From Bacteroidales bacterium (GTDB lineage Bacteria; Bacteroidota; Bacteroidia; Bacteroidales; F082), in NCBI GenBank assembly GCA_017531225.1, contig JAFXLL010000014.1:45390-109389 (forward strand): a stretch of 64,000 nucleotides of DNA. Direction: 5' to 3'. This document shows, piece by piece, positions 8,719 to 20,843 of this stretch (position 1 is the stretch's first letter; every line of letters starts with the position of its first letter). The notes under the pieces are model-generated. The model was not told the DNA's origin. It made no database searches and saw nothing but the letters and a program-made list of their open reading frames with translations. A program made the translations under genes and the position numbers.

Positions 8719-10251
8719 TTACCTGTATGGATTATACCTTCCGACGGTGGATACGTAAATCTCCACTCGGCGGTTTTTGGCGCGGCCAGATGCGGTGTCG
8801 TTGCCGGCCACGGGATGGTTGTAAGATTCTCCGCTGGTGGTGATGTTGTTAACGCCTTTCTTTTTCAAGTAGTCAGCTACCATTCGGGCACGATTGACGG
8901 CCACAGCCTCGTTTACCTCGGAGGTGCCGGTATTGTCGGCATGGCCGATCACAGTCACTTGACAGGAGCCAATTCCCTTGATTTCTTTAGCCAAGGCATC
9001 AAGTTGCTTGGTATCCTCCTTCGATAGCGTCTTGCTGTCCACATTGGAAAGCGTGTAGGTCTTTACACCTTTGGTGTTGGTGTTTTTCAACATGGAACTG
9101 GTGGAAACGGAATAGTTTGGCGATTCGGTATTTTTAATCAGGCCGCAACCTTGCAGCAGTGCCACCAGCATCAAAATGGTGAGACCATAGGTTATAGTGG
9201 ATTTAGGTCCTTGTAGCGGTGTGCCGCACTCTTCGCAGAAGCGGCTGCCTTCAGTGATTGATGCGCCACAATTGGGGCATACATGTTGTTTCGGTGTTTC
9301 CATAACGGGTTCCTCCTCCTCATCTATGAATATTTCTTTGTTTACGGTTTTTTTGTTTTTCTTATTGAATACAAAGAGTATCAGCGCAATAAGAATGGCT
9401 GCTATGCCGATGACGATAATGTATTTGACCACCGGACTCTTTTCATCATTATCAACCCACTCCTCATAGTCCGCTTCCTCTTCTTCGTCAAGAGTTTCAT
9501 CGTACGAGTCTTCAGTATCTTCATCGTTTTCATAGTCGTCATAGGTTGCTTCGGAAACTTCAGAATCTTCGGCAGATACTTCATCAATGTCTTCAAAACC
9601 AGTGTCTTCAAACGTCTCCCATGCTTCGTTAGATTCCGTCGCTACACTTTCTTCTTCCCAAGTTGATACCTCTTCCAATGGGGTTGTTTCGGTGGATTCG
9701 ATGTCTTGAGAATCATTGGAAGCAGTGTTGGAAGCAGAGGCCACCATTTCGCCGTCCCATGCGTAAGTATAAATGGCTTCCATGCCGTTGCAAGTGTACA
9801 CGATCGTCATTTCCGCACCGCTTGAGGGGGTCTTCGACATCAGGGTCGCAGTCTCAGGTGGGGTTACTTGGTTGCGTCCGGCAGCATCAGTCGCCGGATA
9901 GCCATTCACCGTCACTTTGGCGTATGGTGAATAGTTGAGCCGTGGTCCTTTTTCGGAAAAAACGATACGCACCGAGATATCCTCACCAGGGGCATAGCTC
10001 TTTTGGGGTTCGTTGAATGTGGCCTTGGAGGAATAGACATCCATCTGGGTGCCGTTGGTGACTTTGCGTTCGTATTGGAACACGCCTTTTTTATAGGAAC
10101 AGTCGATACGGACTTTTTGGCCGTTTTCCCAGCGTCCACCGGTGCCGTTCACCTTGGTTCCTATGAGTTTCCAACCATCGGCCCAAGCCATTTGGAGGGC
10201 GCAGCAAAGCATCAGCGCGGTTAAAAGACTTTTTTTCAGATTCAGTTTCAT
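8719..10251 (-). CDS. Mosaic envelope protein: signal peptide, private repeat module, acidic linker, TM, cytoplasmic zinc ribbon, second TM/lipobox-like segment, OmpA peptidoglycan-binding domain
   Basis: 510 aa. Zinc ribbon: CPNCGASITEGSRFCEECG. OmpA motif: VTVIGHADNTGTSEVNEAVAVNRARMVADYLKKKG...GRAKNRRVEIYV. D/E-rich stretch of ~95 aa. Two hydrophobic segments (YIIVIGIAAILIALILFVF; ITYGLTILMLVALLQGCG). Confidence 0.8.
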   Translation of the reverse strand: MKLNLKKSLLTALMLCCALQMAWADGWKLIGTKVNGTGGRWENGQKVRIDCSYKKGVFQYERKVTNGTQMDVYSSKATFNEPQKSYAPGEDISVRIVFSEKGPRLNYSPYAKVTVNGYPATDAAGRNQVTPPETATLMSKTPSSGAEMTIVYTCNGMEAIYTYAWDGEMVASASNTASNDSQDIESTETTPLEEVSTWEEESVATESNEAWETFEDTGFEDIDEVSAEDSEVSEATYDDYENDEDTEDSYDETLDEEEEADYEEWVDNDEKSPVVKYIIVIGIAAILIALILFVFNKKNKKTVNKEIFIDEEEEPVMETPKQHVCPNCGASITEGSRFCEECGTPLQGPKSTITYGLTILMLVALLQGCGLIKNTESPNYSVSTSSMLKNTNTKGVKTYTLSNVDSKTLSKEDTKQLDALAKEIKGIGSCQVTVIGHADNTGTSEVNEAVAVNRARMVADYLKKKGVNNITTSGESYNHPVAGNDTASGRAKNRRVEIYVSTVGRYNPYR

Positions 10252-10268
10252 GGTATATGCTTTCGTTT

Positions 10269-10742
10269 TTAATTTCTTTTGACGCGGGGTTTGGTTTCAT
10301 CCCATGAGCCGTCGGCAGCGGTGCTGTAGCCGTCGAAGGCGATGGTGTCAGGGGCGAGGAAGCCTTGTTCGTCGAAATAAAAGAGCTTGTATTCGGGACG
10401 GGGACCCAGGACCCAGACACGGCAGCGCAGCAGGCCGTCGTCGTAGCGACGATAGACAATGTGGCCGTCAGGAAGTGTATCGAAGCCGCCGTTGGAAAGG
10501 ACGTAGGTATTGGGTGTGTAATCTTCCAAGGCGGCAAGGCTGTCGGGATTTCGGATTTTGAGGCCCCTTGTAACGAAGGCGCCGCCGTCCATGCCCGTGC
10601 GGGCGGTTTCGTCCTCGTAGGCCTCGTCAGGCGTGAGCCAGGGGTCGTTATCGACAGGCGGCTTGGGATGCCAAAGGCCACAAGCCGTGAGCAAGCCAAG
10701 ACCGATGATCGGCAGCATAATGGATATTTTGAGTTTGTTCAT
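10269..10742 (-). CDS. Small lipoprotein, function unknown (GC-rich gene)
   Basis: 157 aa with lipobox LLTAC. It has a 3-nt gap to the upstream gene and a 17-nt gap to the downstream gene. GC is clearly higher than in the flanking genes. The C-terminal YKLFYFDEQGFLAPDTIAFDGYSTAADGSW resembles cell-wall/choline-binding-type aromatic repeats. Confidence 0.7.
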   Translation of the reverse strand: MNKLKISIMLPIIGLGLLTACGLWHPKPPVDNDPWLTPDEAYEDETARTGMDGGAFVTRGLKIRNPDSLAALEDYTPNTYVLSNGGFDTLPDGHIVYRRYDDGLLRCRVWVLGPRPEYKLFYFDEQGFLAPDTIAFDGYSTAADGSWDETKPRVKRN

Positions 10743-10745
10743 TAT

Positions 10746-13700
10746 TTATTCCTCCCATGCATAATTATAAGTGGTGCTTATTTTAGACATACTTCCATAA
10801 ACCTTGATGTATTCTGTTATGAAAAAGCCCACCGCGCCGGGTGTTCCTGGTTTAGATGGGGCGGAACCTTTGGCTACACCCACAACCTTTTTGTTGCTAT
10901 AGGAAGGTTTATCATCCCAATCACCTTCGTATTCGACACAGCCGTCCCATTGGCCTGTTGAAAACACAATGTCACCGTAAGACATGCCTTCTTTACCGCC
11001 TTTGATCTTTGGTTTCTCATTGGTCACCTTCAGGGTGATTTCCTCTCCGGGCATATACACGGATTTGGGCTTTTCGAAGTTGATTTCGCGGTCGCTGATC
11101 ATACCGTCTCTCTCAACATGGGCTGTGTAGTGTCCATTGCTACCCTGAATAGTGATGCCTTTAGCCGAGCCGGTGATCATACCTTGTTCGGTAGAAACTC
11201 CAGTATGGATCAGTTTCCAGTGGCCGCCGGTGACGGGTTTTTCCTTGACGGGCTTGGCTTTTTTGCCGCCGTCCACCCATTCGTAATGATAGGTAATTTT
11301 CAACTCAACGGTGTTGCCGGTGCTGCTGCGCACTGTTTCAATGATTAGGAAGGTGTTTCCAGTCCAGCCATATCCCTTGGTGGGAGCGATCCTGGTTCTA
11401 CAATCTTCACCAGCCGTACCAGTCGTGCCTGGTCCTGTATAGGTAGCACCCTCCTGTTCCCACCCAAAGGAACCTTGATAGCTCGGAACGTCGGTACAGC
11501 CGTAATCAAAGTTAGCCACTGAATGCCCGTGAATTACATTTTTAGCATTTGGTTCATCGGTAGGGGTAATCTTTGTGGCACCATATTGGATTTTTAAACG
11601 GATATTTTCCCCTGGGGTATAAATCTTTTTTGGTCGCTCCGTCTTTATTGTACGCTCGTGGGTGACTTTTATAAGAGGTTTCTTCCAATATTTTTCATAC
11701 CCGCACTCACCATGTACGAGATATACACCATCTTTCCCTTCTATGTAGTTGTTGTAAGTCAGGTTTTTATCGACCCCTTGGGCTGATATTTTACTGTCAT
11801 CCACTTCGGTTTTCACGAGCTGCCAATATCCGCCTTCAGGAACGTTTTCTGTTTCCAATTCTGGTTCCGGTTCCTCTTCGCCTACCCATTCGTAATTATA
11901 CACGAAGGTGACGGTGGCCATCAGGTCGGAGCCTTGTCGTTCTTTGATGGAGTAGGTTTGCGTCAGCGTGAACGATTTGGGGCCGTTCTTTTCCGGATGA
12001 CGGGCTTCGAAGGTAGTGGTACTGCCGCGGGGCCAGTTCACCTTGCCTACCGATGAGCGGCCGTTGTCTATCTTGTCTTTTTTCGACTGCGCGCAGGCGG
12101 CTTGGTCGGAGCTGGTGTTTTTCGCCTCAAATACAAACGGATCACTGACTTTCGTCAGGTAGGGATCATCGGCGATTTCCCAATGGGCTTTGTATTGCTG
12201 TGTGGGAATCCAGAACTTTGGAGGCTCCGTGTAAGTGAGTGTTCCTTCGATGAAAATGTCTTGCACATAGACGCGTCCGTTTTCCTTCGTTTTTTCCTCG
12301 GTGGCGCCCATGCCGGTGAATTCAAGGCTGCGGCCCGTTTTGGCTTCCTGCAGATCGATGCTGCGGTAGTCGCTGCTCACCTCGTCGTCGTTGCTTTGGT
12401 CAACATCGATGGAAGTGTTTTTCATCGTCATCCTACTGCTCACTTGTTTCCAGTAGTTGGTTTCGGGTTCCTTGGTCTGCACCACTTCTTCTTCGGGCTG
12501 GTCGCCTTTGGCGCCCCATTGTGCAGGTTCACCTATGGGCGACACGTAGGTGGTTTGTTCATCGGGCTTGTAGTACCATTGCAGTGAAAGCGTGAAGCTA
12601 TTGCCCTTTTTGCTGCAATCAGGTATTGTCCATGTTGCCTTTTTGCCGAAATTCTTGGGTTCGATTTCGCGGGTGTATTCTTCTCCGTTTTTGTCCTTAT
12701 AGGTCACCACAACGCCGGTGATGAGTTTTTCCTTGGTTAGCGCACGGGCTGGTTTGGGCACGATAAAGGTGATTTTGTCGTCTTTCACTTTGCGGATTTC
12801 TGGGGCCTCAGGTTTAAATAGGGCTACCGCGTAGTAATCGCACAAGGGGCCCTTGGATTGTGACGTAGTGACGACACCTAAATAATATCCGTTGTTTTTT
12901 TTCTTATTCAAAACCAAGTTCCCATTAACGTCTTTTCCGTTATAATCAGTCTTGGGGTTTCCCTCATAATAGAGAGTAGGTTTTACATTGGTCAAATGAT
13001 GCATTATGACATACTCTTGAAACTTGTAATCGGACATATAGAACGACACGTAGGGATTGTCACCTTTATGTTTTTTGTCCTTCGGCTTGCACACGACAAA
13101 TATGTGTGCAATACTGGAAGGGAGCCCTTTTCCTATCTCCAAATGGAAAGTGTTTACCGTGTAGTCCTGGGGTTTCGACAACTTGTCTATTTTTTCAATC
13201 GGGTTGGTAGGTTTTAAAAGTATATTTTTTGTAGCCACGTCCTCAGGGCATTTATAGTGTGTTTGACTATCTATGATTACCGGCAAGTATTTTTCTCCAA
13301 AATACCTCCATCCTTTGTTGAATTGCTCGCCATCAATACCCAAGGAGAACTTTATCCAGCCGATCCATCCACCGTCTGTAGAGTATTCAGCTTCTTTGCC
13401 AAGCTTGGACATGTGAGGCCCATGCAGAGAATAGCTATCCATGAAAGGCTTCATGGTCACAGACTCTTTCCCAACACCTTCCCGAATACCTTCTATGGCA
13501 TCACCATAAGTGTATTCTTCAGGCAAAGGGGAGAATATAGATCGTTCCTTTATCCTTTCAGGTCTAAGTTTCGTGATATGTGTATTGAAAGGGTAGCCGA
13601 ATATATGCTTTTCGTCACGGTCGGTTATCAATTTGCCTTCGGCATTCGTGGAAGTCGGGTCTTGTTCCGTAATGATGCCGTCTTTATACCACTTTTTGGC

Positions 13701-15014
13701 AGCATCCCTTTCCAGGACGGTGGCCGTTGCTTCGGCTGCTGCCGAACCCATTTTGGTAAGGGTGTAATAACTTTGCTGTCTGACGTGGAACAATTCATGG
13801 ACAAGGGTAACTTGAGTGTGGTCAGAGCTCTCTTTGTCTATTTTTGCTTTGGAATAATTGAGGACAACACAATGTCCATCAACCCAAAGCGATGCTGCAG
13901 CACCGTATGTCTCCGATTTTACTGAAGGTTCTTCCAACAAAAAGAAGGGTATTTCCTTATTCAGTTTGTGAAGTCCAATACTGTCCAAATATCGGTTTGC
14001 CCGAATGATTTGGTTTTTGATGGTCTCTATGCTTTTCGGGAGTTGGGCCGCAGGATCGGCGTTCAATTCTTTCATGACAGCATCGTCTTTAATCAATTTT
14101 TTTAAGATGCTATTATAGCCGATTTTCTCCTTGATTGCCCGAACCTGTTTTCCTGGAAACCAGTCTTCCCAAAAATAGGGTTTGATATGCTCCTTCTCAA
14201 GTTCTTTTTGGACACGGTCTTCAAAATCTTTTTTGGCCTGCTTTTCCAACTTGGCATATTGCTTCTGATACTTTTCTCTCCGTTTTGCAAATTCAGTATA
14301 GCCATCAGGATTCTCTGTATCCCGAAACCGGAAATGCAACACAAAATTTCCACTTTTATCGGAAACAGGAAGCACAAAAGCCGTATTATCAAAATAATAA
14401 TAATCAATAATAGTGTGAAATTCTGAAGCAACTATCTTGGCCAAAAACTTCCAATAGGGCTTCACTTGATGATTAATCAAGTATAACGGATCTCCCACAC
14501 AATTGATTACGATTGAAACAAAAGAGTTCTGATTGCTCTTGAAAGAGAGTTTTCCGTCGGCTAACTGTGTGTTGTATCGGTAAGCTCCCATTTTCTTTCC
14601 GTTTTTGGCAACACGGTACACGCATATATTCTCTTGCAGGTTTTCAGGAATGCCCATCTTGTTCAGGTCTATCACCACATCGTAGTCGCCAGGGAGAAAT
14701 TCGCCTGGTTTCATGCCTGCATCGAGGTCAAAGACCATAAAAGGTGTTAGATCTTCTGTTTCCAACAGTTCTACTACCTTGTCATAAGTCTTGTCGTCTA
14801 CGGGTGTCAGCTTGAACTCCCGGTTCTTATCCAAGGCGTTCTTGGGCGCGCTGATGGTGATGCCTTCGACAGGCTCTATCTTGAAAGGCTTGCTGTGCCC
14901 GACAACGATTTGTTCTTTCTTGCTGTTGGATGAGGTTTCGCTCAGAATCAAATAGCCTGCGGCTCCGAGGATGACGGTCGCGATGAGGATCCATTTGAGG
15001 AGGTTCTTGTTCAT
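10746..15014 (-). CDS. Giant N-terminally membrane-anchored protein with HELFHxRQQ zincin-like motif and three C-terminal private repeat modules
   Basis: ORF-track ORF is 10746..15062. I prefer the internal start MNKNLLKWILIATVILGAAGYLILSE (ATG at 15014), which matches the paralog N-terminus and removes the overlap with the upstream gene. HELFH lies at 13785-13799, with a conserved Glu 18 residues after the second His. Confidence 0.8.
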   Translation of the reverse strand: MNKNLLKWILIATVILGAAGYLILSETSSNSKKEQIVVGHSKPFKIEPVEGITISAPKNALDKNREFKLTPVDDKTYDKVVELLETEDLTPFMVFDLDAGMKPGEFLPGDYDVVIDLNKMGIPENLQENICVYRVAKNGKKMGAYRYNTQLADGKLSFKSNQNSFVSIVINCVGDPLYLINHQVKPYWKFLAKIVASEFHTIIDYYYFDNTAFVLPVSDKSGNFVLHFRFRDTENPDGYTEFAKRREKYQKQYAKLEKQAKKDFEDRVQKELEKEHIKPYFWEDWFPGKQVRAIKEKIGYNSILKKLIKDDAVMKELNADPAAQLPKSIETIKNQIIRANRYLDSIGLHKLNKEIPFFLLEEPSVKSETYGAAASLWVDGHCVVLNYSKAKIDKESSDHTQVTLVHELFHVRQQSYYTLTKMGSAAAEATATVLERDAAKKWYKDGIITEQDPTSTNAEGKLITDRDEKHIFGYPFNTHITKLRPERIKERSIFSPLPEEYTYGDAIEGIREGVGKESVTMKPFMDSYSLHGPHMSKLGKEAEYSTDGGWIGWIKFSLGIDGEQFNKGWRYFGEKYLPVIIDSQTHYKCPEDVATKNILLKPTNPIEKIDKLSKPQDYTVNTFHLEIGKGLPSSIAHIFVVCKPKDKKHKGDNPYVSFYMSDYKFQEYVIMHHLTNVKPTLYYEGNPKTDYNGKDVNGNLVLNKKKNNGYYLGVVTTSQSKGPLCDYYAVALFKPEAPEIRKVKDDKITFIVPKPARALTKEKLITGVVVTYKDKNGEEYTREIEPKNFGKKATWTIPDCSKKGNSFTLSLQWYYKPDEQTTYVSPIGEPAQWGAKGDQPEEEVVQTKEPETNYWKQVSSRMTMKNTSIDVDQSNDDEVSSDYRSIDLQEAKTGRSLEFTGMGATEEKTKENGRVYVQDIFIEGTLTYTEPPKFWIPTQQYKAHWEIADDPYLTKVSDPFVFEAKNTSSDQAACAQSKKDKIDNGRSSVGKVNWPRGSTTTFEARHPEKNGPKSFTLTQTYSIKERQGSDLMATVTFVYNYEWVGEEEPEPELETENVPEGGYWQLVKTEVDDSKISAQGVDKNLTYNNYIEGKDGVYLVHGECGYEKYWKKPLIKVTHERTIKTERPKKIYTPGENIRLKIQYGATKITPTDEPNAKNVIHGHSVANFDYGCTDVPSYQGSFGWEQEGATYTGPGTTGTAGEDCRTRIAPTKGYGWTGNTFLIIETVRSSTGNTVELKITYHYEWVDGGKKAKPVKEKPVTGGHWKLIHTGVSTEQGMITGSAKGITIQGSNGHYTAHVERDGMISDREINFEKPKSVYMPGEEITLKVTNEKPKIKGGKEGMSYGDIVFSTGQWDGCVEYEGDWDDKPSYSNKKVVGVAKGSAPSKPGTPGAVGFFITEYIKVYGSMSKISTTYNYAWEE

Positions 15015-15034
15015 GATGTTTATCGGTTGAGTTG

Positions 15035-18000
15035 TTACTTTTCTGTTTTGGGAGACACCCATTCGTAGGTATAAACTTTTTGGAAATAACAGTTTTCTGA
15101 GATGATGACTCGCTGTATGATTTTGAAACCATCTGGATAGAATAGGTCATGATCGGGAATGGAGAAAGCGCTTCCTTCATGACTCCTCTTGCGTTCATCA
15201 AATTCATAATGATTGAGGGCCCTTAACCGTTTTGGGAATTCAGTTTCAAAATCCAACTTTTCTAGACTAAAGCTTCCCGTTCCCCATAGATACGGCGTTG
15301 AATTGTCGCCCACACCCCTGTTTTTTGTAGTTATGGTCGCTTCGCTTTCTGTCATGGAGGGCCCTGGTTCATTTTCCTTATAGTATTGTTTTGGAGTCTC
15401 GAAGGTGTAGTCGCGGTCAACGGTATAAATCACCCCTCTGCCCACTTCACGATTGATACCGTCACTCCCTTTTTCGGTAATTCCCCCCACGATGTCCATG
15501 TGCAGATGACACTGTCCTGCACCACCACTAATGACATGGTTGGACCCGTTTTTATCCTTATAGGTCGTATGTGAGTCATCCGCTTCGGTCTTGACCAGTT
15601 GCCAATACCCGCCTTCTGGAGCGGTTTCCTCTTCCTTCTCTTCTTTTTCAGGCTCGCCCTCTACCCATTCATAGTAATAGGTGATGTAAGCGACAGCGTT
15701 AAGGCCGGAGCCTCCGCTGATGGTGTATTTCTGCTCGATGGTGAACTCTTTGGGGTCGTTTTTCCCTGGTTTGTTGGTCTTGTAGACGGTCTTCACCTGA
15801 TGGAGCCACTTGGCATCAGCGGTCTTGGAGTTCATTTCCGTCACCTTGTCTTTGCCCTTTTGGCAAGCTTTGGGTTCGGAGGTGGTGTTTTCCACGGAGA
15901 AGGTGAAGGGGTGATTCATCTTGTCAACGAAGGGATCTTGCTCGGTGTACCACTCGCAAGTATAGTTGGTGTTGGCGGGCCATTGCTTGGGCGGCTCGGT
16001 GAAGCTGACGTAGCCGTCTAAGCAAGTCTCCGGTTTGAAGAGGGTCTTACCGTTCTCTTTGACTTTCCTGGAGGCCATGCCCGTGAATTCAGCTTCGTTT
16101 GCACCGCTCGCGAACTTCATCGTGATGCCGCGCACATCATGAGTGGCGAAACCATCGCTGTCGAGTTCGCTTTCATCTATTTTCTGCCCTTCCACCTTGC
16201 CGGTGGCACTCACCTGCTTCCAGTAGCCTTCCTTCTCGTCAATCTTGACGGGTTCTTCTTTCTTTTTCTCCTCGACTTTCATCGCACCATGCACGACAGG
16301 CTTGGATTCGGGGGAAATGTAGGTGGTCTCCGCATCTGGCTTGAAGTACCAGTGTAGGGTTATTTTAAAGTCCTTTTCTTGGATTCCCGGCAGATTGTTG
16401 ATGCTGTATTTCTTGCCGAAATACTTGGGTTCAATGTCATAGGTCTTGGTGCTCCCGTCGGCAAACTTGAGGGTCGCCACAGCTCCGCTCAGCAATTTTT
16501 CCTTCATGATTTTGGTTGGAGCCTTGGGCATGATGAAACCGAGTGCGTCTTTTTTGGCTGTGAGTTTTTTGGGCGCATCGGGTGCGTAGAGGGCAACGAT
16601 GAAATAGTCGTTGTTCTCTCCCTGTGACATGGTCGTTGCTATGGCTGCAAGTGGGAATGTGCTGTGTTTCGTACAATATAGGTTTGGCTTCAGCGGAACC
16701 AAGTGGTCACTTGCATCTACCGTTCCCGAAAAATCATAGGGGTAAAGATAAAACTTCAAATAGGGATTCCAAGCCTGTTGGCCTTTTCTGTTTGAAGGGC
16801 TTACAAACACATTGGCGGGCTCGGTGTGGAAACCTTTGCCGGGTGTCCTTTCCGATTTCAAGTCTATTCTAAAGGTGTTGATAGTATAGTCTTTCGGCTT
16901 CTCGAGTTTTTCCAATTTCGAGATGGGATGGTCTTTGGAGAGCTCTATGATGGTTGTGGCCGCGTCCTTCGGAGTGGTTCCCGCCATTTGGCTATTGTAA
17001 ATCCTGTTCAGGTTGGTTTCTCCAAAATAGAACCAACCGTCGTCAAATTGTTGGTCATCGATGTCAAGAGACTTTTTTATCCAACCTTTCCAACCTGAAG
17101 TGTGGGGTCCGAACAGAGAATAATTGGCGGCAAAGAAGTACATGGTCATGAATTCCTTGTTGGACCGTTTCCGGATGCCCTCAATGGCATAAGACAAGGA
17201 ATAAGCGGCATCGACAGCGTCGCCTGACGGAACGAGCGACATGGCTTTTTCCAGTGGGTATGCAAAGACATAATTCTGGTCACGGTCAGTGCATATTTTC
17301 CTTGCGCCTTGCACAGTGGAGGCATCTGTCTTGAAGACTTTGTTTTTGTACCACTGAATGGCGGCATCGTCTTCCAATGTCGCAGCCGTCGATTCCGCTG
17401 GTGCGGAATTCATCGCGACAAGCGCATAATAACTTTGCTGCCGGGCATGAAAAAGCTCATGAACGATGGTACACTGGAACTTTTCCCATAGTTCGTCGGT
17501 TTGACTGTGTTTATAATTCAGCAAAAGGAAGGCATTCCCGCAGAAATAATACTTTTGCGCCACCCCACAGATTTTGTCGCCTATAACGGAACCATTCACT
17601 AAGTAGATTGGCATTTCGTAGTTAAACGGATGAAGCCCTATGCTGTTCAGGTATTCATTAGCCCTGATAACCTGTTCCTTAATTTTCTGGATACTTGGCG
17701 GGAGGCTGCCTGCTGGGTCAGTATTCAAACGGGTCAAAACCGTGTCTTTTTTGATTAAGTTCTCGAGGATTTCTTCCTTGGAGATGCTTTCCCTGATGGC
17801 TTCGACTTGTTTTTTGGAGAATAGTTTTTGCCAGAAGGAGTATCCCTTTTGCTGATCCTTCACCTCCTGATCCACTTTTGCCTCATATTTGGCATTCGCC
17901 AGTTTTTCCAACTCCTCCAAACGATCAAAAGCCGCTTTCTCGTTGTCTATGAAAGCTTGGTAGCCATCGGGGCGTTCGGTGTCGGAAAAACGGAAATGAA

Positions 18001-18688
18001 GGACAAAATCACCACTGGTGTCTTGGATTGGAACAGCCAAAGAAGTGGAGTTACCGGAAAAGAACTTTCTTATGGAAGTGGTGCCATTAGAGGCTGGTGC
18101 ATACTCAAAAATGCGTCTCCCAACTTGAATAGCCATGGTAATTCCGCCCAAGGTCGCAAGTGCTCCGATGATAATGGAATTTTGATTGCTCTTGAATGAG
18201 AGTTTTCCATGGTCAAGATGCGTTTTGTATCGGAGAAATTCAAATGATTTGTCAGAGTCCACGGCACGATACACGACAAATTGGTCTTGGAGCTCTCTGG
18301 GTATGCCCATCTTATCCAAGTCCCACACGACATCGACATCTCCCGGCAAATGCTCATCGGATTGTAGTCCAGCATCGAATTCGAAGACAAAAAGCGGCTT
18401 GATGTACGTGTTGTCGTAAGCCTTTGTCACCTTTTCGTAGGTTTTGTCATCCACCGCCGTGAGCTTAAACTCCCTGTCCTTATCCAAGGCGTTCTTGGGC
18501 GCACTGATGGTGATGCCTTCAACGGGCACAATCTTGAAAGGCTTGCTGTGGCCTACTACGATTTGCTCTTTTTTGCCTTTAGGGCGCGAACTCTTCTTGC
18601 CTGAGGGCATTTCGCTAAGAATCAAATAAGCGGCGGCACCGAGGATGACAACCGCGATGAGAATCCATTTGAGGAGATTTCGGTTCAT
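15035..18688 (-). CDS. Giant N-terminally membrane-anchored protein with HELFHxRQQ zincin-like motif and two C-terminal private repeat modules (paralog of 10746..15014)
   Basis: 1217 aa. N-terminus is MNRNLLKWILIAVVILGAAAYLILSE. HELFH lies at 17447-17461. It is collinear with its paralog through the N-terminal ~700 aa. Confidence 0.8.
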   Translation of the reverse strand: MNRNLLKWILIAVVILGAAAYLILSEMPSGKKSSRPKGKKEQIVVGHSKPFKIVPVEGITISAPKNALDKDREFKLTAVDDKTYEKVTKAYDNTYIKPLFVFEFDAGLQSDEHLPGDVDVVWDLDKMGIPRELQDQFVVYRAVDSDKSFEFLRYKTHLDHGKLSFKSNQNSIIIGALATLGGITMAIQVGRRIFEYAPASNGTTSIRKFFSGNSTSLAVPIQDTSGDFVLHFRFSDTERPDGYQAFIDNEKAAFDRLEELEKLANAKYEAKVDQEVKDQQKGYSFWQKLFSKKQVEAIRESISKEEILENLIKKDTVLTRLNTDPAGSLPPSIQKIKEQVIRANEYLNSIGLHPFNYEMPIYLVNGSVIGDKICGVAQKYYFCGNAFLLLNYKHSQTDELWEKFQCTIVHELFHARQQSYYALVAMNSAPAESTAATLEDDAAIQWYKNKVFKTDASTVQGARKICTDRDQNYVFAYPLEKAMSLVPSGDAVDAAYSLSYAIEGIRKRSNKEFMTMYFFAANYSLFGPHTSGWKGWIKKSLDIDDQQFDDGWFYFGETNLNRIYNSQMAGTTPKDAATTIIELSKDHPISKLEKLEKPKDYTINTFRIDLKSERTPGKGFHTEPANVFVSPSNRKGQQAWNPYLKFYLYPYDFSGTVDASDHLVPLKPNLYCTKHSTFPLAAIATTMSQGENNDYFIVALYAPDAPKKLTAKKDALGFIMPKAPTKIMKEKLLSGAVATLKFADGSTKTYDIEPKYFGKKYSINNLPGIQEKDFKITLHWYFKPDAETTYISPESKPVVHGAMKVEEKKKEEPVKIDEKEGYWKQVSATGKVEGQKIDESELDSDGFATHDVRGITMKFASGANEAEFTGMASRKVKENGKTLFKPETCLDGYVSFTEPPKQWPANTNYTCEWYTEQDPFVDKMNHPFTFSVENTTSEPKACQKGKDKVTEMNSKTADAKWLHQVKTVYKTNKPGKNDPKEFTIEQKYTISGGSGLNAVAYITYYYEWVEGEPEKEEKEEETAPEGGYWQLVKTEADDSHTTYKDKNGSNHVISGGAGQCHLHMDIVGGITEKGSDGINREVGRGVIYTVDRDYTFETPKQYYKENEPGPSMTESEATITTKNRGVGDNSTPYLWGTGSFSLEKLDFETEFPKRLRALNHYEFDERKRSHEGSAFSIPDHDLFYPDGFKIIQRVIISENCYFQKVYTYEWVSPKTEK

Positions 18689-18695
18689 AAGACCA

Positions 18696-19037
18696 TTATT
18701 TCGTTAACAACGCAATTAAAATAAAGATGGCAAGAATGATGGCAAAAGCGATCAACTTGCCCTTGCTGATGAATGTGATTTGCGGTTTTCCGATTTCAAT
18801 TTTTGGTTTGAATTGCTTCCAATCAATGCCATTGGTTGGTTTTTCATCGGCAGCATCAACAAACTCATGCAGGGTTTGCTTTTTCGGTTGTTTTGGTTGC
18901 TGAGGTTGTTGAGGTTGTTTGTACTCTTGTTGGGGTTTAGGTTGTTGTGTTGGTACAGCAACTTGGGCTCCACAATTGGTGCAAAAACGTACGCCCTCTT
19001 GTAACGGGGCTCCGCATTGATTACAAAACTTAGGCAT
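18696..19037 (-). CDS. Small zinc-ribbon protein with P/Q-rich linker and C-terminal transmembrane anchor
   Basis: I use the internal start MPKFCNQCGAPLQEGVRFCTNCGAQV (ATG at 19037). The 216-aa track ORF would extend through the promoter region. The C-terminal LIAFAIILAIFILIALL is a TM segment. There is a 7-nt gap to the next gene. Confidence 0.7.
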   Translation of the reverse strand: MPKFCNQCGAPLQEGVRFCTNCGAQVAVPTQQPKPQQEYKQPQQPQQPKQPKKQTLHEFVDAADEKPTNGIDWKQFKPKIEIGKPQITFISKGKLIAFAIILAIFILIALLTK

Positions 19038-19051
19038 GGCAAATAAATTTT

Positions 19052-19059
19052 TAGTTTTG
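19052..19059 (+). promoter_or_regulatory. Candidate -7 box (TAGTTTTG) for the Kelch/AraC regulator gene
   Basis: Matches TAnnTTTG on the plus strand, back-to-back with the minus-strand box. It lies ~140 nt upstream of the ATG at 19200. Confidence 0.3.
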
Positions 19060-19061
19060 TG

Positions 19062-19069
19062 CAAATTTA
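19062..19069 (-). promoter_or_regulatory. Candidate -7 box (TAAATTTG) for the five-gene operon
   Basis: Reverse complement of caaattta matches TAnnTTTG, ~25 nt upstream of the ATG at 19037. Confidence 0.45.
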
Positions 19070-19100
19070 AGGATGCCGCCGCTAACTTGTTATTTTCCAA

Positions 19101-19155
19101 AGGTGACGATTTCAATAAATTTAGGTGACAATTTCTAAAAAAAGGTGACAATTTC
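19101..19155. promoter_or_regulatory. Three direct repeats AGGTGAC(G/A)ATTTC; candidate operator array
   Basis: Copies at 19101-19113, 19123-19135 and 19143-19155 (start spacing 22 and 20 nt). They lie between the divergent operon and the AraC-type regulator gene. A fourth GTGACA half-site sits at 19195-19200. Confidence 0.55.
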
Positions 19156-19199
19156 CCCAAAAAGCAATTACGGAGGGTTAAAACACCTATCTTTGTGAC

Positions 19200-20843
19200 A
19201 TGAAACGACACTTGCTTTCTTTTGTTTGGCTCCTGTTGCTGTGTTCCTGCCAACAGCAACCCGAAACGCTTTTTGTGGGTGACATTCCCTTTGTTCCAAT
19301 GGAAACGGAATCGTTGCCTGAAATGAACACGCCTCGCGCGGGCCATGCCTTAGTGTGGGCCGATGACCATATCTTAGTCGTGGGAGGACATACCACAGGA
19401 TTTGTGCCCACCCCAACGGCAGAGTATTATAAAAACGGAAAATGGCATCAGATACTCACGCTCTATCTGCACGACACCCCCTTTGCCCTTGTGCTGAAAG
19501 ACGGTGATGTATTGATAGGCGGTGGTTATGAAAAGGATTTCGGGGTAGGGCAGACTTGGGGAGTGGAATGTTATCATCCCGCCACACACAGCTTTGCGCC
19601 AAAATCCATCATGGACCGAAAACGGGCACATGCCAGTGCTTTGGAGTTGGAGCATGGCGAGATTGTGATCAGCGGAAACTGGTACACCACCGATGTCACC
19701 GAAATCTATATTGATTCCGTGGAAGCCCAATGGATTGACACGGCAGCGGACAATCGCAGCTACCCCTTTCTCCTACCTGTCACCAACGACAACGTATGGA
19801 TTATTGGTGGCACTTACGGGAGTTATGGAATGAGCACCCAAAATGTTGTTGACCAGACCAAAGGAGAGCCTTTTTCGGTGGATTTGTTGGCAGCATGGCT
19901 TCCCCAAACTCCAACGGACCGCAACGTACAGGCCGATGCCTATCGCTTAGCGGAACACACCTTCCTGATACCCGCTATAAACGCCGAAAGACAATGGGCT
20001 CCCATGCTTGTTGACAGCACAGGCTTCTCGCTGTTGTCCATGGAACAAGCGTTGCCAAAAGAGGGACCCTGGGGTTCCATCCAATATACGGGCTCGTTTT
20101 GGACGGATCCCGAAACAGGAACCGCATGGCTCATGGGTTTGGATGGGCAGCGTGTTTATTTGGCTGAAATCGCCTATCAACCAGCGCTTCAAGGCGGAAA
20201 GGCAAAGCTTTCCATGCATTACACACGGCCTTTGGAAGACCTACCAAGCGATCCCTATGAATTGCTGCTTCCCGACGGTAGTTTTGTGATCGTTGGTGGC
20301 AGGAATTGCTCCAATTTCATAAGCAGTGCTACGGTGTATGCCTTTTATCCCAATACACAACCCCAACAAAACAGGGTTTTGTTTGCCATGATCATAGGCT
20401 TGATGGTCTTAATCGGTTTGTGTTTGGCCATTGTAGTTAAAAAGAGAAAACATCAGAAAGAGACAACTCCCAAGGTCAAAGAGGAAGATCTGCCGATACA
20501 GGAAAAGACAGACTTGGGAGAAAAACTCAAGGCATTGATGGAAGAAAAGCAGCTCTTCCGGAACAAGGATTTGCGAATTGCCGACGTGGCCGCTGCCCTG
20601 GGAACCAACATCACCTACCTTTCGGCTTGCCTGAACGGTGAGTTGAACACGACCTTCCCCGCCTTTGTGACCGGTTACCGTATCCGTTATGCCCAAGAAT
20701 TGATGCGCAAAGTGCCCACGATGCGTCTTTCGCAGGTGGCAAAGGAGGCGGGTTTCACCAATGAAAAGACTTTTTTACGCACCTTCAAGACCTCGTGTGG
20801 AGTTACCCCTTCGGAATGGAAGCAGGAACACGGCGGTGATTAG
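19200..20843 (+). CDS. Transmembrane one-component regulator: lipoprotein signal, Kelch-like beta-propeller, TM helix, C-terminal AraC-type HTH
   Basis: 547 aa with lipobox LLLLCSC. Repeated hhh(V/I)GG motifs (HILVVGGH, VLIGGGY, IVISGNWY, VWIIGGTY, FVIVGGRN). TM segment VLFAMIIGLMVLIGLCLAIVV. AraC HTH: IADVAAALGTNITYLSACL...AGFTNEKTFLRTFKTSCGVTPSEW. Confidence 0.8.
   Translation: MKRHLLSFVWLLLLCSCQQQPETLFVGDIPFVPMETESLPEMNTPRAGHALVWADDHILVVGGHTTGFVPTPTAEYYKNGKWHQILTLYLHDTPFALVLKDGDVLIGGGYEKDFGVGQTWGVECYHPATHSFAPKSIMDRKRAHASALELEHGEIVISGNWYTTDVTEIYIDSVEAQWIDTAADNRSYPFLLPVTNDNVWIIGGTYGSYGMSTQNVVDQTKGEPFSVDLLAAWLPQTPTDRNVQADAYRLAEHTFLIPAINAERQWAPMLVDSTGFSLLSMEQALPKEGPWGSIQYTGSFWTDPETGTAWLMGLDGQRVYLAEIAYQPALQGGKAKLSMHYTRPLEDLPSDPYELLLPDGSFVIVGGRNCSNFISSATVYAFYPNTQPQQNRVLFAMIIGLMVLIGLCLAIVVKKRKHQKETTPKVKEEDLPIQEKTDLGEKLKALMEEKQLFRNKDLRIADVAAALGTNITYLSACLNGELNTTFPAFVTGYRIRYAQELMRKVPTMRLSQVAKEAGFTNEKTFLRTFKTSCGVTPSEWKQEHGGD

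Follow-up and report, generated by a model that had tools for sequence, protein, structure and literature searches.

Three short direct repeats lie at 19101-19163 of a 64,000-nt (64 kb) stretch of rumen Bacteroidales DNA, referred to here as the window, in the intergenic region between a plus-strand gene for a Kelch-TM-AraC regulator (TM, transmembrane) and a divergent, presumed operon of five envelope-protein genes on the minus strand. The locus raises the question of what these repeats do and, if a protein reads them, which protein this is and which of the two promoters it serves. The explanation favoured here, at a probability of about 0.7, is that the AraC domain of the adjacent regulator binds 19101-19163 as three tandem operator (upstream activating) sites. 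The array would most likely provide the sites by which the regulator switches on the divergent operon, and the regulator would probably act through it on its own gene too, as positive autoregulation. From the sequence we infer the binding of the units by the Kelch-TM-AraC protein, activation as the direction of the effect, the transcription start sites and the periplasmic signal.

The repeat array

A preliminary description of this DNA had reported three 13-nt direct repeats with starts 22 and 20 nt apart, and these were confirmed, with AGGTGACGATTTC at 19101-19113 and AGGTGACAATTTC at 19123-19135 and again at 19143-19155, all on the plus strand. A repeat search lengthens each copy to 19 nt, and the program TRF returned one array at 19099-19164 with a period of 20 and 3.2 copies. 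With up to one mismatch allowed, the 13-mer occurs three times on the two strands of the 64 kb against 0.15 expected, all three matches falling inside 55 nt, and three or more matches were seen in none of 100 shuffles. The array was divided into three units, scored against a matrix of 53 orthologous units in which three core positions (2.0 bits) were preset by the unit-picking filter:

19101-19122, plus strand: unit 1, AGGTGACGATTTCAATAAATTT, 26.4 bits, nearest the operon promoter
19123-19142, plus strand: unit 2, AGGTGACAATTTCTAAAAAA, 31.3 bits, the top score to the matrix
19143-19163, plus strand: unit 3, AGGTGACAATTTCCCCAAAAA, 27.4 bits, nearest the regulator promoter; predicted span relative to the regulator start, -57 to -37

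Unit 1 is predicted to lie at -44 to -65 from the minus-strand start and at -99 to -78 from the regulator start. Its variant GACGATTTCAATAAAT fills the equivalent slot in L001, L201, L206, L207 and the second array of L204 (L numbers denote the loci compared). No further site of at least 12 bits to the 53-unit matrix was present elsewhere in the window. An RNA-based explanation of the array was dropped given that the region has no Rfam match and no RNA structure signal, with a folding z-score of -0.23.

Conservation and anatomy of the repeat unit

A homologue scan of the regulator using one genome per species yielded at least 111 relatives, comprising 12 orthologues of 65-91% identity and paralogues of ~30-42% identity; close homologues of the regulator number in the hundreds. 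Further homologue look-ups and one metagenome contig contributed the additional loci L125, L201-L205 and L206-L209. The resulting comparison set consists of 20 orthologous loci with 15 distinct intergenic regions and regulators that are 55-95% identical. The top genome match is L001, an uncultured Bacteroidales metagenome-assembled genome (MAG) whose regulator shares 91% protein identity with that of the window.

Tandem units, all on the same strand, are present in 20/20 of these loci, numbering three to five in each, with L003 cut off by a contig end that leaves a single unit visible. Conservation at the same spacing among orthologues, proposed earlier as a check on the repeats, is thereby seen throughout the set. 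The consensus of the 53 units is aGGTGACAAwTyCnAnAAA. Each unit is 21-22 bp long and bipartite, with aGGTGACAAwTyC followed one helical turn downstream by an A-tract. Information concentrates in two blocks, one at positions 2-9, 11 and 13 and a second at 15 and 17-19, and is near nil at 14 and 20-22. Positions 2-9 (GGTGACAA) together with 15 and 17-19 (A.AAA) carry 1.4-2.0 bits, three of the core positions being fixed by the filter, and the GGTGAC core is the most conserved part at 1.6-2.0 bits, a range in which three of the 2.0-bit positions were preset during unit picking. Units are spaced 19-23 nt apart among the orthologues, mostly 22 nt, with a final interval of 19-21 nt.

An alignment of eight diverged intergenic regions restricts the invariant columns to the unit cores, a minus-strand CAAAnnTA box and an AAAA..CCTAnnTTTGnnnnCATG block at the regulator start. 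The spacer DNA around the units has diverged, and the unit variants are position-specific across the 15 distinct intergenic regions. Judged by this pattern, the array is genuine, well conserved and cis-regulatory. The bipartite layout over ~20 bp, with its two blocks about one turn apart, is as expected for one AraC-type domain with two helix-turn-helix (HTH) motifs per unit. The units match the description of AraC/XylS-type sites (~17-21 bp, two sub-elements about one turn apart), and the distances of 22 and 20 nt in the window agree with direct repeats of ~21 bp period for this class.

The adjacent regulator

The gene that borders the array has the following position:

19200-20843, plus strand: regulator gene, 547 aa, Kelch-TM-AraC

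The predicted product begins with a lipoprotein-type signal in which Cys17 is invariant, followed by a Kelch β-propeller, one TM helix, a disordered linker and a C-terminal AraC two-HTH domain. The single TM helix is predicted at ~389-419 with KKRK directly after it, and the low-confidence linker that follows leaves only ~20-30 residues between the helix and the DNA-binding domain. The C-terminal domain is a complete two-HTH AraC-type DNA-binding domain: Pfam HTH_18 matches at 6.3e-15 over profile positions 2-79 of 80, HTH_AraC matches at 1.1e-8, the AlphaFold2 (AF2) model has seven helices at 439-544 with pLDDT 82-93, and its PDB sequence matches are AraC-type domains, including ToxT and a Bacteroides hybrid two-component system (HTCS) protein. 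For the N-terminal part, Kelch_6 scores 33.6 bits against a cut-off of 25.3, and the top PDB matches in Foldseek are Kelch propellers and galactose oxidase (E ~1e-8, TM-score ~0.5 to target), which identifies a Kelch propeller in a model whose mean pLDDT of 71 is only moderate.

HisKA, HATPase and Response_reg domains were absent from the regulator at E <=0.01, and no recognisable cytoplasmic dimerisation domain was present. According to this model, the regulator is of a membrane-tethered one-component type with a periplasmic propeller and a cytoplasmic AraC domain. Full-text literature searches found no description of a Kelch-TM-AraC or membrane-bound AraC regulator. Single genomes carry several Kelch-AraC paralogues, and genomic matches to the family number at least 111.

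Promoters and helical register

In Bacteroidetes the sigma-A -7 element is TAnnTTTG, located at -12 to -5 and ending 4-5 nt before the start (PMC6847099; PMC7366714). A box of this type faces each of the divergent genes, and all transcription starts given here are predicted from the geometry of these boxes:

19062-19069, minus strand: operon -7 box, TAAATTTG on the minus strand, predicted start ~19057
19188-19195, plus strand: regulator -7 box, TATCTTTG, followed by TGAC and ATG (4-nt gap), predicted start the A at 19200

The operon box had been proposed as a candidate in the preliminary description; it is present, and its defining bases (C8, A9, A10, A11, T14 and A15 of orthologue alignment A2) are invariant. 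The predicted operon leader is 20 nt, from ~19057 to the ATG of the Zn-ribbon gene at 19037. Between this box and unit 1 there are only 21 or 32 nt in every orthologue, 32 in the window, and the two classes differ by one helical turn. The suggestion that AraC-type direct-repeat sites adjoin the operon promoter is borne out to the extent that motif, period, orientation and distance to the box are kept at 20 orthologous loci and the neighbouring gene encodes a complete two-HTH domain.

The regulator box lies at exactly -12 to -5 from the ATG in 16/16 loci, and also in L206-L209, within an invariant block that reads AAAA..CCTA..TTTG....CATG. With the box 4 nt before the ATG and a published box-to-start spacing of 4-5 nt (PMC6847099), transcription of the regulator gene should begin at the A of the start codon, which predicts a leaderless mRNA. 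With a leaderless mRNA the array would be upstream of the regulator promoter (-99 to -37) and outside any leader. The earlier placement of the array within the regulator leader is contradicted by this prediction, and the autoregulation that had been tied to it loses its leader position, such that any autoregulation would act from upstream (-37 to -99). The further GTGACA at 19195-19200 that had been listed with the repeats is present in the sequence. It is not a fourth repeat, because it consists of the last G of the -7 box, four spacer bases and the A of the ATG, and orthologues read GTGGCA, GCCGCA, GTAGCA, GCGGCA, GTCGCA or GCGCCA at this place.

The leaderless layout (TAnnTTTG, 3-6 nt, ATG) also recurs in all orthologues and in 26/65 paralogous Kelch-AraC genes (loci L016-L077). 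It looks like a family trait, in a phylum with only a few percent of leaderless transcripts: in B. thetaiotaomicron ~3.7% of 5' untranslated regions are shorter than 10 nt (PMC7366714), and in Flavobacterium psychrophilum leaderless mRNAs make up 5.5%. A plus-strand TAGTTTTG at 19053-19060, which could have given a leadered regulator transcript, was considered and not adopted; it occurs only in the window and L001 and has a disfavoured G at -10. A sigma-70-type promoter scan is irrelevant for Bacteroidetes, and its sole plus-strand match reuses the repeat cores.

On the regulator side, the last unit starts at -34 from the ATG in one locus (L008), at -55/-56 in nine and at -76/-78 in six, that is, in one-unit steps, with L207 and L208 (about -57 and -55) in the middle class. 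On the predicted geometry, such a quantised register is the signature of a face-of-helix constraint between bound protein and RNA polymerase. Measured from the predicted starts, the nearest unit edge is at ~-44 from the operon start (-33 in other loci) and at ~-37 from that of the regulator. No obvious -33 TTTG element was seen at the operon or the regulator promoter, and promoters of this kind would be consistent with activator dependence.

Proposed mode of action

In the proposed mechanism the regulator would be anchored in the inner membrane, with the periplasmic Kelch propeller as the presumed signal sensor and the DNA-binding domain held in the cytoplasm on a flexible linker of ~20-30 residues. 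One two-HTH domain would occupy each 21-22 bp unit and touch two successive major grooves, at the GGTGACAA block and at the A-rich block, and the two-turn period would set all bound domains on one face of the DNA. Lacking a cytoplasmic dimerisation domain, the regulator would gain cooperativity from several adjacent sites, in parallel with ToxR on its tandem repeats, and cooperative occupancy of the phased sites would provide avidity in place of such a domain. The main target would be the minus-strand sigma-A promoter (19069 to 19062) of the Zn-ribbon/HExxH giant-protein/lipoprotein/OmpA operon, activated from ~-44 in a class-I-like manner, or from -33 in the 21-nt class in a class-II-like manner. 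The regulator's own leaderless promoter (-7 box 19188-19195) would probably be activated from ~-37.

The same protein could occupy the same sites with the opposite outcome, in which case the array would serve chiefly to repress one promoter or both, through occlusion or looping. The sign of regulation is not readable from sequence, AraC-family proteins can repress and AraC looping is established, and at L008 the last unit, at ~-34 to -14 of the regulator promoter, would take a position more typical of repression or class-II overlap. In 19/20 loci, however, no unit overlaps either predicted core promoter and all lie upstream, with nearest edges at -33 or -44 on the operon side and at ~-36 or further on the regulator side. 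The absence of an obvious -33 TTTG at either promoter is usual for activator-dependent promoters, and the units keep a conserved helix face relative to the -7 box, which suggests that RNA polymerase is contacted. Repression is the foremost of the alternatives, and we consider it unlikely.

Natural rearrangements

Two orthologous loci are rearranged around the array. In L204 the regulator and the OmpA/giant-protein operon are separated by a patatin/Omp85 gene, and the locus carries two full arrays. One of them adjoins the regulator; the other has no neighbouring regulator gene and stands 21 nt from the -7 box that serves the displaced operon. A third array, degenerate and with GGTTACA/GGTAACA cores, lies upstream of genes for a 110-aa exported protein and a 540-aa lipoprotein. 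In L206 a hipBA toxin-antitoxin module has been inserted between array and regulator. The array was kept with the Zn-ribbon operon promoter, and the regulator retains only a -7 box and ATG, 28 nt past the end of hipA. The elements are:

L204:3368-3430, L204:5902-5965 and L204:12229-12330: the three arrays of L204, on one 12.4-kb contig
L206:8185-8246 and L206:8351-10001: the rearranged segment of L206, in which array and regulator gene are 1.75 kb apart

Taken together, these rearrangements indicate that the array is primarily an element of the minus-strand promoter module and travels with the operon promoter, and on this comparison any effect that it has on the promoter of the regulator would be secondary and dispensable. 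With its three arrays, L204 hints that the regulon spans several promoters or that a second, related regulator exists.

Specificity of the array and its paralogues

Separation of array and regulator gene, by 1.75 kb in L206 and in the L204 arrays that lie away from the regulator gene, would also be seen if some other regulator, with its gene elsewhere, bound the array and the Kelch-AraC gene were just a conserved neighbour. Against such a binder, the array and this orthologue group occur together in 20/20 loci though the divergent genes vary, and the motif is absent from the paralogue loci (30-42% identity), with no such array at any of the 68. More widely, no array matching the 53-unit matrix was present in ~1.46 Mb of paralogue and unrelated loci. 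The unit length, the bipartite layout and the direct-repeat period of 21-22 bp also suit an AraC-type domain.

In addition, one paralogue group pairs a different array with different recognition helices. Paralogues L027 and L054 have a three-unit array of CTCGTTTTGAAAGTCG, with a period of 20-21 nt, ~34 nt upstream of a -7 box, which precedes an operon that ends in the paralogue itself (small ORF, lipoprotein, regulator). Compared with the window regulator, they also have different HTH recognition helices. The pairing of a different array with different helices is the only covariation-type evidence available. The positions are:

L027:3825-3882 and L054:3742-3794: paralogue arrays, kept between two MAGs despite differing flanks

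On these grounds a different binder appears improbable, and marginally more so than repression by the adjacent regulator.

The broader proposition that every paralogue has its own array drew only partial support from a periodic three-copy search at 80 genome loci, in which most paralogues had none near the regulator gene, L027 and L054 were clear and L015 was possible. At L015:7894-7951, three CCAACCATTGACAA units with a 21-22 nt period lie just downstream of the regulator gene, with inverted copies (TTGTCAAAGGTTGG) close by. A metagenome scan for GGTGACRA-N11-15 in three copies was of no use for regulon or exclusivity; among the matches listed, most were unrelated soil, marine or freshwater tandem repeats and only L125 was a true orthologue. 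The unrelated environmental metagenome contigs L109, L130 and L152 contain longer tandem arrays with GGTGACAAT-like cores and a period of 19-23 nt, and no Kelch-AraC gene was found there. For many paralogous regulators, the gene directly upstream encodes a product with the C-terminal sequence ...IRPVTD, ...IRPVSD or ...VRLVHN (for example L033, L034, L036, L040, L046, L077; L204:10205-11827). These endings presumably resemble the C-termini of the Fibrobacter-type paralogous (FISUMP) lipoprotein domain.

DNA structure and other origins of the repeats

Each unit holds AATTT/ATTT plus a run of five to seven A residues, with tract centres ~8-12 bp apart, and the array could accordingly be viewed as a protein-independent structural element, in which phased A/T tracts stimulate the flanking promoters as a static bend or in an UP-like manner. 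In favour of this view, Bacteroidetes promoters characteristically carry AT-rich motifs upstream of the -7 box (PMC6847099). The most conserved part of the unit, the G/C-containing GGTGAC core, plays no part in A-tract bending, though, and the motif is limited to the orthologue group while a different paralogue has a different, non-A-tract motif. Curvature may contribute and would leave the sequence specificity unexplained; as the whole explanation it is very improbable. Origins without a regulatory role, namely a recent, neutral tandem duplication, the end of a mobile element or plasmid iterons, for which ~20 bp tandem repeats with a GGTGACAA-like core in unrelated metagenome contigs might speak, are effectively refuted by the conservation data, with the array kept across 15 distinct intergenic regions with position-specific variants, no Rfam match or RNA structure signal, and a conserved chromosomal neighbourhood of housekeeping genes in synteny with no rep or transposase gene alongside.

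Several observations nonetheless weigh against operator sites for the adjacent regulator. The DNA-binding domain and its recognition helices are almost invariant among the orthologues, which leaves no protein-DNA covariation signal within the group. Curvature from the A/T tracts could account for part of the conservation, and the last unit of L008 overlaps the regulator promoter as described above. The L206 regulator promoter has no adjacent array, and autoregulation is dispensable at least there. The genes divergent from the array also differ in some loci, being for type IX secretion system (T9SS)-tail proteins in L005, L007 and L009 and for lipoproteins in L004, L010 and L012. Homologues of the window operon flank the array in 12 loci (including L001, L002, L006, L011, L125, L201, L204 and L206-L209), and by this count the link between the array and an operon of the window type is frequent and not universal.

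The divergent gene cluster

The presumed target operon on the minus strand has the following genes, separated by gaps or overlaps of no more than 28 nt:

8719-19037, minus strand: five-gene cluster, presumed target operon
18696-19037, minus strand: Zn-ribbon membrane protein
15035-18688, minus strand: 1217-aa protein with an N-terminal TM segment and a HELFH motif
10746-15062, minus strand: 1438-aa paralogue of the 1217-aa protein
10269-10742, minus strand: 157-aa lipoprotein
8719-10251, minus strand: Zn-ribbon/OmpA-domain protein

The two giant proteins (1217 and 1438 aa) share ~42% identity, and several Zn-ribbon membrane proteins as well as an OmpA-domain protein occur alongside them. Sequence searches of Pfam, NCBIfam, PADLOC and the PDB gave only a weak HExxH-family hint for them, the 1438-aa protein having a weak NCBIfam match to a MXAN_6640-type HExxH metalloprotease domain, and they may be membrane-anchored metalloproteases. 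The 157-aa lipoprotein gene (window 10269-10748) shows 90-96% DNA identity where the regulator genes are only 64-72% identical, and a ~1-kb piece of the 1438-aa gene (window 11844-12822) is 95% identical to L201. Such a pattern suggests mosaic evolution of part of the operon or its recent exchange among rumen Bacteroidales. Genes for SusC/SusD and T9SS-tail proteins lie near the array in the window, and the conserved chromosomal synteny includes inositol monophosphatase, topoisomerase, deoxyhypusine synthase, arginase and RuvC.

A more general picture can be drawn, tentatively and at somewhat below even odds. Rumen Bacteroidales would hold a large undescribed family of lipid-anchored, single-pass Kelch/AraC one-component regulators that read a periplasmic signal and, with no cytoplasmic oligomerisation module, assemble on three to five phased sites, the number and register of the units setting the response of the divergent promoters. 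Their genes would typically be leaderless, and the envelope module under control of the window regulator's orthologue group would be a mosaic one, exchanged horizontally and built of giant HExxH membrane proteins.

For a regulator family of uncultured rumen Bacteroidales that is so far uncharacterised, the analysis yields a precise candidate operator, aGGTGACAAwTyCnAnAAA, which has a 21-22 bp period and keeps a fixed register with the -7 box, and it points to an envelope operon with giant HExxH proteins as the probable core of the regulon. It also offers a compact natural example of what would be a membrane-tethered AraC-type factor on multi-site phased arrays. The motif can be used for regulon scans of complete MAGs and, given the signal, for inducible expression tools in Bacteroidales.

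Comparison with known regulatory systems

The operator logic is familiar, being that of textbook AraC direct repeats in a divergent region, and no concept is overturned. What is new is the uncharacterised sensor architecture, the larger than usual number of units and the regulator gene that is predicted to be leaderless. In the divergent araC-araBAD region of E. coli, AraC uses the direct-repeat half-sites I1-I2, and RhaS/RhaR, XylS, MelR and ToxT have tandem or multiple sites. The window resembles araC-araBAD in a regulator divergent from its presumed target, a two-HTH domain matched to ~17-21 bp sites, direct repeats of ~21 bp adjoining the core promoter and a regulator promoter that shares the control region. 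It differs in having three to five equivalent units where AraC has a half-site pair, and in a predicted membrane-anchored regulator that has a Kelch propeller in the periplasm and neither a cupin nor a cytoplasmic dimerisation domain. Both promoters have -7 elements of the Bacteroidetes kind, a distal looping site was not seen, and the prediction for the regulator is a leaderless mRNA.

The marbox of MarA, SoxS and Rob is an asymmetric 20-bp site bound by a monomeric AraC-type domain. A comparable arrangement of one domain per bipartite ~20 bp site, with 4-8 bp specific and A-rich elements about one turn apart, is proposed for the units described here, whereas the consensus is different and marboxes are single rather than in tandem arrays. 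ToxR uses tandem direct repeats, whose copy number varies at ctx. With ToxR, TcpP and CadC the window regulator would share the form of a bitopic inner-membrane transcription factor with a periplasmic sensor and direct, here inferred, binding of promoter DNA. Those proteins carry an N-terminal OmpR-type winged helix, followed by the TM segment and a C-terminal sensor. In the window regulator the order is reversed, with a C-terminal AraC-type domain, the opposite topology and a cleavable lipoprotein-type signal, and only the principle of tethering is common to both.

Two comparisons come from within Bacteroides. SusR is likewise a membrane protein with a periplasmic sensor, a cytoplasmic DNA-binding domain and predicted direct-repeat motifs (PMC3878776); its DNA-binding domain is unrelated to known families (PMC3878776), in contrast to the AraC-type domain found here. 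The AraC-type HTCS regulators of Bacteroides have predicted operators that are direct repeats on average 21 bp apart (PMC3878776, Ravcheev et al. 2013). They belong to the same phylum as the window regulator, similarly join a periplasmic sensor across the membrane to a cytoplasmic AraC domain and adjoin their target locus. Unlike them, the window regulator has no detected histidine-kinase or receiver domains and a Kelch sensor in place of one of the COG3292 or periplasmic-binding-protein type, its array has three to five sites instead of two, and its presumed targets are envelope proteins, not a classical polysaccharide utilization locus (PUL). By its domain content the regulator is not an HTCS, though it would be similar in its working.

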